The notes: generated by a model not told the origin, from the sequence alone. A stretch of DNA of 63,980 nucleotides, filler included, from Nitrospinota bacterium (GCA_030620925.1; 13 parts of 13 records of this genome joined end to end with filler, not necessarily neighbours in it); one strand, 5' to 3'. Positions 7,360 to 18,695 are shown, numbered from the whole stretch's first letter. Translations and numbers: made by a program.

Positions 7360-7691
7360 AGGTGCTCGACCAATTCAAAGAGCTCACGGTCTTATTGGCC
7401 CATTTAGGCCGCGGATACGAAGACGAAGCGGCGGAGTTGGCCGCCGGGTACCCCAACGTATACTTCGATCTCTCCGCCTGCATTTCCGGCGCCGAGGCCG
7501 GCGATACCAAAGGGGACGACGAGGCGATGGAAATCATAAACAAAATCGGGGTGGAGAGGATAATGTTCGGCTCCGACTACCCGTGGTACGACCCCATACG
7601 CGACGCCCGGCGCATCATGGCCCTCCCCTTGACGGATGATGAGAAGCGGCTCATATTGAGCGAGAACGCCAAACGAATCCTTAACCTATAG
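7360..7691 (+). CDS. Amidohydrolase_2 family protein, C-terminal part
   Basis: LAHLG, YPNVYFDLS, RIMFGSDYPW and ILSENAKRIL motifs. Confidence 0.9.
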
Positions 7692-7702
7692 GAGGAACGC
7701 AA

Positions 7703-7930
7703 TTGGCGCTGGTAACAAACGTTGGCAGGACGGAACGGATCATTCGCATCTCCGCAGGCATAGTGGCAATTCTACTCTTCACTCCACTGGGGGGCGCAGC
7801 TCAGTGGGTATCCCTGGGCTTGGGGGTATTCTTTCTGGCGACAGGCGTAATGAACTACTGACCGTGAAAGCAGATGCTGCTGAGGTCCTCAGCGCAAGAG
7901 AGTTCGGAAAGCGAGAAGAAGGAAGAATAA
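7703..7930 (+). CDS. DUF2892/YgaP-like small membrane protein, candidate selenoprotein with two in-frame UGA (Y-U-P-U)
   Basis: GGAGGA RBS overlapping the upstream stop, then a TTG start. Translation: MALVTNVGRTERIIRISAGIVAILLFTPLGGAAQWVSLGLGVFFLATGVMNY-TGA-P-TGA-KQMLLRSSAQESSESEKKEE-TAA. NVGxxERxxR and LxTG...CP are DUF2892 hallmarks. Not in the ORF track. Confidence 0.7.
7875..7896 (+). promoter_or_regulatory. Candidate bacterial SECIS hairpin
   Basis: TGC-(bulged T)-GCTGAG-[GTC]-CTCAGC-GCA. The apical loop lies 17 nt after TGA 7865-7867 and 23 nt after TGA 7859-7861. Confidence 0.55.
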
Positions 7931-8135
7931 AAAACGTGGGGGGGAATCTTTCAGGCAGTTCCGCCTTCCGCGGGATTGTCCGGGGGAGAATCACCCCGCC
8001 ACAAGTGACGGCGTTCGAGCCCCGCCTGAAGGCAGGGTCATCAAATACCCACCCATGAATGAGTGGGTATGTAGGGTGGAACTGTACCAACTCGTTAGGC
8101 ATTACCTTTCTTAAATTAAGGTTCCCCTGAGAAGC

Positions 8136-17048: not shown

Positions 17049-17786
17049 TTACCAGACGGCGCGGGCAAGCGTCAAGACGTGCACTTCAGCGGCTCCGCCC
17101 TTTTTAAGCGTGCGGGCGCATTCGTCCACCGTGGCGCTCGAAGTGAGAACGTCATCCACCAGCAACACCGATTTCCCCTTCAGCTCTTCAGTGTTTTCGG
17201 CGCTGAAAGCCTTTCTGACGTTTTTCCGCCTGTCCTTAACGTCGGTCTGGCTCTGAGTGTTGACCACCCGGGTGAGCAGATGCGTCGCAACCGGTATCCC
17301 AAGGGCATCCGCCGCCGCCCTGGCCAGCAATGCCGACTGGTCGAACTCCCGCCTCAACAGCCGCCACCGGTGCAGGGGAACGTTAAGCACCAGGTCCAAC
17401 CGCCTGCGCTCCATGAGGCGGCCCGCATGCTGTTCCATAAGAAACGAGCAGTCGCCCCCTGCAGTCAGCCTCCCCCGGAGTTTAAAAGCCAGTATCAACT
17501 CCCGCAGCGGGCTTTCATACCTGCCCACGGAGCGTGCGGTATCGAAGCGTTGCTTTAGTTGGCGGCAATCGCGGCAGAGGTGGTCAGGGCTCCACTGGAG
17601 AGCGTATTCGGATTTAAATGGAACCCCGCAGCGGGGGCAGAAGGGGGATTTTATGAAGGGAAGTCTATCCCAGCAGGCTTCGCACAGGGAGCGGTTTTCT
17701 TCCCGGGCCAAAATCGAAGCGCAGAATAGGCAGTGTCTGGGGTATACAACATCCAGGGCGACCTTGGGCAGGTCTCTGAGCTTCAT
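17049..17786 (-). CDS. comF: ComF family amidophosphoribosyltransferase-like protein
   Basis: N-terminal CxxC ribbons, VPLH...RREFDQS and LLVDDVLTSSAT. Confidence 0.92.
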   Translation of the reverse strand: MKLRDLPKVALDVVYPRHCLFCASILAREENRSLCEACWDRLPFIKSPFCPRCGVPFKSEYALQWSPDHLCRDCRQLKQRFDTARSVGRYESPLRELILAFKLRGRLTAGGDCSFLMEQHAGRLMERRRLDLVLNVPLHRWRLLRREFDQSALLARAAADALGIPVATHLLTRVVNTQSQTDVKDRRKNVRKAFSAENTEELKGKSVLLVDDVLTSSATVDECARTLKKGGAAEVHVLTLARAVW

Positions 17787-17816
17787 TTTGAACTCTGAGT
17801 CTAATAAGGGCTCTTT

Positions 17817-18695
17817 TCAGCAGCAGCCTTTTCGGGCCAGCCCTTTAACTTTTATGCTTGAGAGCACGGGATCGTTCCTGTCCAGCTCTTCTTCGACTTG
17901 TTTTCTGACCTCTGCATCCAGGTTGTCCAATGAACAGCCCAACATTTTCTTTAGCTGTTTTCCGGTGAGGTCTGACCGAGCGACCACCTGGACGTCGCTG
18001 AAACCGGCATACCTGATGGCCCCCAGGTACTCCTCCTCCGGTATAGCGCCGCCGATGCAGCTCGCCCACGAATTGATGTCCTGCCGCAGGGCCTGGGGCA
18101 TATCGAGGATAACTATGTCGGAGACCATGAGCCTGCCTCCATCCCGGCACACCCGGAAGGCTTCCTTGAAAACTTTGCCCTTGTCAGGGGCCAGGTTGAT
18201 GACGCAGTTGCTTATTATCAGGTCCACGCTGTTATCTCCGGCGGGCATCGCTTCCGCTTCGCCCAACCTGAATTCAACGTTATCGGCTCCCGCCTGGGCG
18301 ACGTTTTCCTTCGCCCTGTCTATCATCTCCTGAAGCATGTCCATGCCGATAACTTTGCCTTTCGGCCCTACTTTCTTCGCCGCCAGGATGACGTCTATGC
18401 CCGCGCCGGAGCCGATGTCCAGCACCACGTCGTCCTCACGGATTTCCGCCAGTGCGACGGGGTTGCCGCATCCGAAAGCGCTATCCACCGCATCCTGCGG
18501 CAGCTCGGCGAGCTCTTCCTCGGTGTAACCTATGGCCTTGGCATACTTCTCCTTCTCGCTGGGGGTAAAGGGGTCCTGCTGTTCACAGCACGAAGGGGGT
18601 GAAGTATCGCAACAAGATGAGGGCTTTTCCCGCCTGGCCAGCTCGGAGTAATGCTCCTTAACCACTTCTTTTACTTTTTTATCATTCACCGCCAT
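17817..18695 (-). CDS. arsM: Arsenite S-adenosylmethyltransferase-like protein
   Basis: FGCGNP, VLDIGSGAGID, ISNCVINL, WASCIGGA and terminal CC pairs. Confidence 0.85.
   Translation of the reverse strand: MAVNDKKVKEVVKEHYSELARREKPSSCCDTSPPSCCEQQDPFTPSEKEKYAKAIGYTEEELAELPQDAVDSAFGCGNPVALAEIREDDVVLDIGSGAGIDVILAAKKVGPKGKVIGMDMLQEMIDRAKENVAQAGADNVEFRLGEAEAMPAGDNSVDLIISNCVINLAPDKGKVFKEAFRVCRDGGRLMVSDIVILDMPQALRQDINSWASCIGGAIPEEEYLGAIRYAGFSDVQVVARSDLTGKQLKKMLGCSLDNLDAEVRKQVEEELDRNDPVLSSIKVKGLARKGCC

Follow-up and report, generated by a model that had tools for sequence, protein, structure and literature searches.

In Escherichia coli, the SECIS element of fdhF is a short hairpin that lies shortly after the UGA codon, presents the letters GGUC at its apex and contains a bulged U. 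For bacterial elements of this kind (bSECIS), the model quoted in a 2026 review (PMC13188914, section 5 and the legend to Fig. 2) describes an apical loop of 3-9 nt on an upper stem of 4-16 bp, a G in the first two loop positions, a distance of 16-37 nt from the UGA and a minimum free energy of -7.5 kcal/mol or lower. Table 1 of that review, which covers 119 families and subfamilies, lists motifs of the UxxU, UxC and CxU types, where U is selenocysteine (Sec). On the protein side, E. coli YgaP is described in PMC4730233 as a dimeric integral membrane sulfurtransferase, and a DUF2892 gene of Azospira is given in PMC5358917 as being induced approximately 10-fold under sulfide-oxidising conditions.

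The gene considered here lies in a stretch of DNA of 63,980 nucleotides from a Nitrospinota bacterium (GCA_030620925.1), referred to in the following as the window, in which 13 contigs of one bin are joined by N-linkers; the gene is found on the contig spanning 7360-12741. It encodes a member of the DUF2892/YgaP-like_TM family whose first in-frame UGA occupies the family's Cys column, and both of its in-frame TGA codons, the tail that follows them and a SECIS-like hairpin are conserved in relatives. This is best explained by a real di-Sec selenoprotein gene in which both UGA codons (53 and 55) would be decoded as Sec, yielding Sec-Pro-Sec (U-P-U), a reading drawn from sequence comparisons and assigned a probability of about 0.7. 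The features of the locus are as follows.

7362-7691, + strand: C-terminal part of an Amidohydro_2 gene (PF04909, 72.9 bits), its 5' part being cut by the contig start at 7360
7691-7696, + strand: Shine-Dalgarno sequence GGAGGA, read directly, 6 nt upstream of the TTG start
7703-7930, + strand: coding sequence of the DUF2892/YgaP-like_TM protein, 75 residues and TAA if both TGA codons are taken as Sec
7727-7780, + strand: predicted transmembrane helix 1 (residues 9-26), from AlphaFold2 on alignment A5
7796-7849, + strand: predicted transmembrane helix 2 (residues 32-49), from AlphaFold2 on alignment A5
7859-7861, + strand: first in-frame UGA, codon 53, probable Sec at the invariant Cys of the family's C-P motif
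7865-7867, + strand: second in-frame UGA, codon 55, putative second Sec (U-P-U)
7868-7927, + strand: C-terminal tail of 20 codons, a short hydrophobic stretch followed by a Ser/Glu/Lys-rich end
7876-7895, + strand: SECIS-like hairpin of 3 + 6 bp with a bulged U at 7878 and apical GGUC at 7884-7887, -11.1 kcal/mol

The architecture of the gene had been proposed in an earlier sequence-only reading of this DNA, and closer inspection agrees with it. The frame opens with TTG at 7703, just downstream of the amidohydrolase gene, whose TAG stop (7689-7691) shares its last base with GGAGGA, and runs through Y-U-P-U (TGA 7859-7861, CCG 7862-7864, TGA 7865-7867) and 20 sense codons to TAA at 7928-7930. 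Conventional gene calling ends the gene at 7861 and, as that reading had anticipated, the database entry is a truncated protein of 52 residues. Its further point that TGA acts as an ordinary stop elsewhere also holds, as TGA ends 12 of the 25 Pfam-supported ORFs of the window; the genome is thus not globally recoded. Elsewhere in the window, tandem arrays of 15-nt and 18-nt G+C-rich units were noted at contig ends (49315-49445 and 53034-53177).

The assignment to DUF2892/YgaP, likewise part of the sequence-only reading, is confirmed by Pfam, in that the read-through protein matches PF11127 (YgaP-like_TM, formerly DUF2892) with 53.3 bits against a cut-off of 25.3. The match covers residues 5-64 and so extends past both TGA codons; the 52-residue form scores 36.5 bits. 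When 1.84 billion representatives were searched with HMMER, 56 hits were obtained at E <= 0.001, of which 31 were aligned, with longer multi-domain hits and the lower-ranked rest being left out. The best hit and only close relative (P0003; 66% identity to the window protein) is 52 residues long and hence ends at the same codon as does the 52-residue form of the window. In all 30 full-length homologues of the alignment, the thirty-first sequence itself being of 52 residues, the column of the first TGA is occupied by Cys, precisely where the earlier reading had placed it, and this column is also invariant across the 56-sequence alignment A5. The Pro of the Cys-Pro pair conserved after helix 2 is present in the window protein and the Cys column corresponds to the TGA, such that the pair is complete only if the UGA is Sec; the 52-residue form is without this invariant Cys-Pro. 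Where the window has its second TGA, Cys is absent from all 30 Cys-type homologues, L, I, V, A or M being found instead; in two of them, a Cys lies one position beyond. Word-indexed protein searches yielded no truncated members beyond the 52-residue form of the window and P0003, everything else returned being full-length Cys forms. No model of NCBIfam release 20 fits these proteins and no matching chain was found in a PDB profile search with A5 at E up to 1.

The AlphaFold2 model has a mean pLDDT of 62.9, i.e., low to moderate confidence, and shows a break at residues 50-53 and a short helix at residues 54-63 in addition to the two predicted membrane helices, both of which are hydrophobic stretches in the sequence. 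On the basis of these low-confidence helices (residues 9-26 and 32-49), Sec-Pro-Sec would lie where the second membrane helix ends.

Relatives for which DNA is available were reached via the CTP synthase of the window, whose best hits among GTDB genomes are 66-70% identical and come from Nitrospirota, Nitrospinota and Desulfobacterales MAGs. A search with P0001 of 401 genomes from the phylum holding 'Desulfobacterales bacterium CG2_30_60_27' gave 11 matches (E <= 1e-5), 5 of which contain two in-frame TGA codons. With a profile (A3) built from six two-TGA proteins, two-TGA genes were detected in 14 of these 401 genomes, as well as in 3/17, 8/13, 7/22 and 3/8 genomes of four orders; a fourth matching genome of the last order (G827) has one TGA, with TGG as the second codon. 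Once duplicates had been removed, 25 distinct relatives remained (loci L119-L182), contributed by 24 genomes of a single phylum. The first codon is TGA in every one of them, such that the tabulation called for by the sequence-only reading gives, at the first site, Cys in 30/30 Cys-type homologues and TGA in 25/25 relatives. At the second codon, 24 of the 25 have TGA and one (L155) has TGG, the codon between the two encodes Pro in 18 and Leu in 7, and at neither place does any of the 25 carry TAA, TAG or a Cys codon. In all 25, a purine-rich Shine-Dalgarno sequence precedes the start, which lies 4-6 residues ahead of the N-x-G motif. The window protein is 23-43% identical to this two-TGA clade and 28-41% identical to Cys forms, and is thus no closer to the former.

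For the second UGA, the claims of the earlier reading fared less evenly. Its suggestion that this codon is read through as well is borne out by the TGA in 24/25 relatives and by the conserved frame downstream, but not by the Cys-type homologues (0/30 with Cys) nor by the single TGG. Likewise, of the two findings that it had named as fatal to a second Sec, TAA or TAG at this place was not encountered, but a non-Cys residue was, namely, L, I, V, A or M in 30/30 Cys-type homologues and Trp in L155.

Several observations concern individual relatives and their surroundings. In L155 (G827), positions 1651-1659 read TGA-CTT-TGG, with Trp replacing the second UGA while the hairpin and tail are intact; the gene is flanked by a disulfide oxidoreductase-rhodanese gene and a gene for a metallo-beta-lactamase-fold protein. 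Genome G719 contains two diverged two-TGA copies, L152 (C74) and L156 (C363), both U-L-U and both with Cys-containing tails. Gene neighborhoods are heterogeneous across the relatives, with no universal partner; in the U-L-U subclade, a pyridine-nucleotide-disulfide oxidoreductase with a rhodanese domain and metallo-beta-lactamase-fold proteins are neighbors, and the other neighborhoods are unrelated. TGA-x-TGA members were found neither among the 30 loci listed for 401 Nitrospirota genomes searched with P0001 nor in 151 genomes of the same phylum searched with the profile. The 120 genomes searched from the phylum of G003 gave 16 matches, none with stops, and a P0001 search of the genome contigs revealed no related loci. 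Two metagenome-contig loci from a search with profile A2 were taken to match a signal-peptide-like stretch by chance, and a ninth, weak match in the second order (L139 in G809; a partial match of 31.9 bits with 3 TGA codons) was dropped, no family gene being found there.

Whether the region beyond the second TGA is translated can be considered from codon-position conservation among the 25 relatives. Over the 48 codons preceding the first TGA, mean pairwise identity at codon positions 1/2/3 is 0.55/0.70/0.40. Directly after the second TGA, the corresponding values are 1.0/1.0/0.67 for the first codon (Lys, as AAA or AAG), 0.85/0.78/0.29 for the second (mostly Gly, with all four GGN in use) and 0.65/0.92/0.45 for the third. 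Such third-position variation is the signature of a translated frame. In agreement with translation of the tail, the true final stops vary freely (TAA 5, TAG 11 and TGA 10 in 26 sequences) while the second codon stays TGA, and L155, which has a sense codon there, retains the same tail in frame.

Independent DNA adds to this picture. A contig from metagenome run X1, spanning 7600-7997, matches the window at every base of the gene and has 5 differences in the 23 nt that follow TAA, with 0 of 63 bases of the tail having changed (Fisher p ~0.001); the same downstream differences are seen in run X2 (7860-8022). Because the X1 and X2 strains differ downstream of TAA, they are not the source of the window, and they confirm both TGA codons. 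Sequencing error, raised in the earlier reading as something that would undo the claim, is hence contradicted by an independent contig. As to the contigs themselves, Logan contigs of X2 and X3, which belong to different studies, end exactly at 7859 and another X2 contig begins at 7860, while X1 reads straight through 7859/7860; these ends may be due to strain variation at the first UGA, where the assembly graph would divide, or may have no significance. Further downstream, at 7968-8047, contig depth rises from approximately 7 to approximately 60 in X1, a comparable rise is seen in X2, and short contigs and loose ends are numerous. Such a pattern resembles that of a dispersed repeat lying shortly after the gene; within the window, 7968-8047 has no further copy.

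These data bear on the alternative that survives best, in which only the first UGA is Sec and the second is a true stop, such that the product would be of 54 residues ending Tyr-Sec-Pro and the SECIS would lie in the 3' untranslated region. The absence of Cys from the second column in all 30 Cys-type homologues is what would be expected in that case, and the distance of 22-23 nt between the first UGA and the hairpin loop falls within the 16-37 nt of the bSECIS model, which would allow the hairpin to act for the first UGA only. Yet a true stop sits poorly with three following codons that vary mainly at third positions, with the lack of TAA or TAG in 25 relatives whose final stops use all three codons, with the sense TGG and in-frame tail of L155, with a strain that has accumulated no change up to TAA and five in the next 23 nt, and with a Pfam match that reaches residue 64. 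This alternative is accordingly considered unlikely, and the decoding of both UGA codons as Sec remains the preferred reading.

The hairpin had been described in the sequence-only reading as containing a bulged U and beginning 7 nt after the second TGA, which is correct if an optional U7875-A7896 pair is counted. It satisfies the bSECIS model quoted in PMC13188914, with a loop of GUC or GGUCC, a stem of 6 bp + 3 bp and a folding energy of -11.1 kcal/mol. Taken alone, the window hairpin is within chance (z-score -1.13; 25 of 200 shuffles fold as well), and a lenient scan of the window gave 5 sites with a TGA and a GGUC hairpin against 4.2 expected, three other such sites lying outside ORFs. What lifts the case above chance is the Pfam match (53.3 bits) together with the conservation seen in relatives. 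Indeed, all 25 relatives have a 16-nt hairpin in which a 6-bp stem closes a GGUC loop and which starts 11 nt after the second TGA. Its sequence is the same in 23 of them; in L143, one U-A pair has become U-G, and of the two changes in L182 one disrupts a pair, leaving only -6.4 kcal/mol. In keeping with the earlier claim that a single SECIS would serve both UGAs, one hairpin at a fixed distance is shared by 25/25 relatives. Of the features likened earlier to a known SECIS, the GGUC apex and bulged U are present in the window, but no relative has the bulged U. No Rfam family was matched.

Conservation of the hairpin appears to act on RNA. Within it, identity at successive third codon positions in the 25 relatives is 1.0, 1.0, 1.0, 0.92 and 1.0, against 0.40 upstream, and such frozen third positions suggest that the RNA itself is under constraint. 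The core in the window lies at the same distance as in the relatives and has one base fewer in its 5' arm, which shifts the window hairpin into another reading frame, where it specifies a different peptide; the same core in a different frame argues that RNA, not peptide, is conserved. Covariation, which the earlier reading had suggested examining, was not seen, as 178 of 181 cells pair but none of the pairs has compensatory changes, two cells having gone from U-A to U-G, with 500 of 500 shuffles being as good; the hairpin is conserved without covarying.

The distance from UGA to loop in the window is 22-23 nt for the first UGA and 16-17 nt for the second, the latter at the lower edge of the 16-37 nt range, the respective values in the relatives being 23 and 17 nt. 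In the 7 SelD genes of five carrier genomes, the distance, read from folds, is 16-21 nt. Together with the 17 nt of single-UGA DUF2892 genes (see below), this makes the hairpin canonical for the second UGA and acceptable for the first.

Spacing is also what speaks to a second alternative, in which the first UGA is Sec and the second is read without selenium, either by a near-cognate Trp-tRNA or as a leaky, regulated stop giving rise to a short and a long isoform. The Trp codon of L155 and the lack of a Cys counterpart at the second site would suit such read-through, but TGA has been kept in 24 of 25 relatives even though one transition would give Trp, and the loop lies 17 nt from the second UGA, matching SelD and the single-UGA genes, as SelB-directed decoding predicts. 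Selenium-free reading is therefore judged improbable, slightly more so than a stop at the second UGA, and Sec at both positions is again favored. That the gene specifies an ordinary protein of 52 residues, or is a DUF2892 gene truncated in the course of decay, with the TGA codons and hairpin due to chance or to sequencing or assembly errors, is very improbable, since, for all that the database form has 52 residues, the hairpin alone is not significant and contigs of two runs break at 7859/7860, TGA-x-TGA, tail and hairpin recur in 24 other genomes, the truncated form would lack the family's invariant Cys-Pro and an independent contig, derived from a strain with downstream differences, carries an identical gene.

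Components of the Sec machinery were sought in five carrier genomes (G607, G803, G708, G719 and G569). SelB scored over the cut-off in all five and SelA in four, the fifth SelA being a fragment (230.8 bits against a cut-off of 267.9). SelD was present in all five, in each case with an in-frame TGA, and in two copies in two of the genomes. All seven of these SelD genes (L198-L204) are selenoprotein genes, with the TGA lying in the N-terminal G-U-x-x-K loop. In the window, no sel gene was found among the 26 ORFs run through Pfam and no tRNA was detected by ARAGORN; the use of Sec and the presence of selABCD in the organism from which the window derives are assumed. No other convincing Sec gene turned up in the window, either in the hairpin scan or in a scan for in-frame TGA codons (33 candidates). 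The one candidate of these 33 that was followed up (17049-18695, - strand), an ArsM-like methyltransferase ending Cys-Cys-TGA followed in the same frame by a ComF-like ORF of 245 residues, was read as two adjacent genes.

From the above, we infer that Sec, rather than another residue, is inserted at each UGA and that one hairpin serves both codons. The product would be a two-helix inner-membrane protein of 75 residues in which Sec53 takes the place of the family's invariant Cys. The bSECIS, a SelB-binding hairpin inside the coding sequence, would serve the two UGA codons in turn. With the ribosome at UGA53 and the downstream hairpin bound by SelB and Sec-tRNA, a first Sec would be inserted; two codons further, UGA55 would come to lie at the canonical distance from the same hairpin, allowing a second SelB complex to deliver the second Sec, after which translation would melt the hairpin and end at TAA.

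As for function, which is the weakest step, it is proposed by analogy that the pair of selenols at the membrane interface may be a site for redox chemistry or for the handling of chalcogens or soft metals. The proposal draws on the sulfurtransferase YgaP, on the sulfide-induced DUF2892 gene and on the persulfide-type neighbors of one subclade. The fuller picture, namely, that one in-frame SECIS programmes two Sec residues one codon apart, that Sec-Pro-Sec lies at the membrane interface, that the second Sec arose de novo with no Cys ancestor and that the pair may pass sulfane sulfur, selenium or soft metals at the membrane as a vicinal selenol or diselenide, in the manner of Cys-Pro-Cys motifs of other proteins, is held to be true with somewhat better than even odds.

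A search for precedents gave the following. In Table 1 of PMC13188914, there is no entry for PF11127, DUF2892 or YgaP and no UxU motif, and no spacing of two Sec residues tighter than one codon was seen in this catalogue of 119 families. The names DUF2892 and YgaP were not found in the main text of that review or of the BSepDB description (PMC13326102), nor were they found in the deep-Sep article (PMC12013277) on looking for YgaP and for the prefix 'DUF', although the supplementary lists of these sources may differ. In full-text literature, where DUF2892 is rarely named, no article was returned for DUF2892 with selenoprotein or for PF11127, and those returned for YgaP with selenocysteine are, judged by title and abstract, unrelated. 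If the di-Sec reading is true, a widespread family of small membrane proteins would join the bacterial selenoproteome, gene callers and databases would be systematically cutting the family at residue 52, and a natural test case would be at hand of one SECIS and SelB serving UGA codons 6 nt apart. As the second Sec has no Cys homologue, the usual strategy of searching for Sec/Cys pairs would miss it; annotation pipelines could recover such genes by a signature of TGA-NNN-TGA-AAR and a hairpin.

Comparison with known systems places the locus as follows. The UxxU families listed in Table 1 of PMC13188914 (the metal-binding NF041115, the FmdB-family TIGR02605 and Prx-like proteins) also have two close Sec residues in a small bacterial protein, yet they belong to other protein families and space the two by two residues rather than by the single residue of UxU. 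E. coli YgaP, a membrane-bound rhodanese (PMC4730233), has the two-helix transmembrane domain that gives the Pfam family its name. The window protein is without a rhodanese domain and is related to YgaP through Pfam only.

Cys-type DUF2892 proteins (PF11127; e.g., P0004, P0011 and P0013) resemble the window protein in their length of approximately 65-80 residues, in N-V-G-x-x-[DE]-R, in two hydrophobic helices and in a T-G/A motif followed by the conserved position and Pro, with 28-41% identity. They differ in having Cys for the first UGA and L, I, V, A or M for the second, with no hairpin required, and in a tail of the form x-Y-x-L-L-G-I-S-T, in contrast to the K-x-hydrophobic tail of the window. 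Single-UGA DUF2892 genes of Nitrospirota (L163, which is the same as L104, in G118, and L177 in G122) share the UGA at the same Cys column and present a loop 17 nt after it, but have only the one UGA, a hairpin of 7 bp with a 7-nt loop and a tail, U-P-L-W-K-V-L-G-I-S-T, that is like that of the Cys forms. Another Nitrospirota DUF2892 hit (G285:C4:40636-40836; 71.4 bits) contains 1 TGA.

The two-TGA clade (L119-L182) has in common with the window the U-[PL]-U-K motif, a core of CUGA..GGUC..UCAG at matching distances from the two UGAs, a short basic tail and a Shine-Dalgarno sequence with a start 4-6 residues before N-x-G. Apart from its 23-43% identity to the window protein, it differs in a 4-nt GGUC loop without a bulged U, the 5' arm of the window hairpin being one base shorter and the tail of the window protein being different. 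The window hairpin, finally, resembles the SECIS of fdhF in its GGUC apex and also has a bulged U; the bulge is absent from all 25 relatives and, in contrast to fdhF, one hairpin here follows two UGAs.
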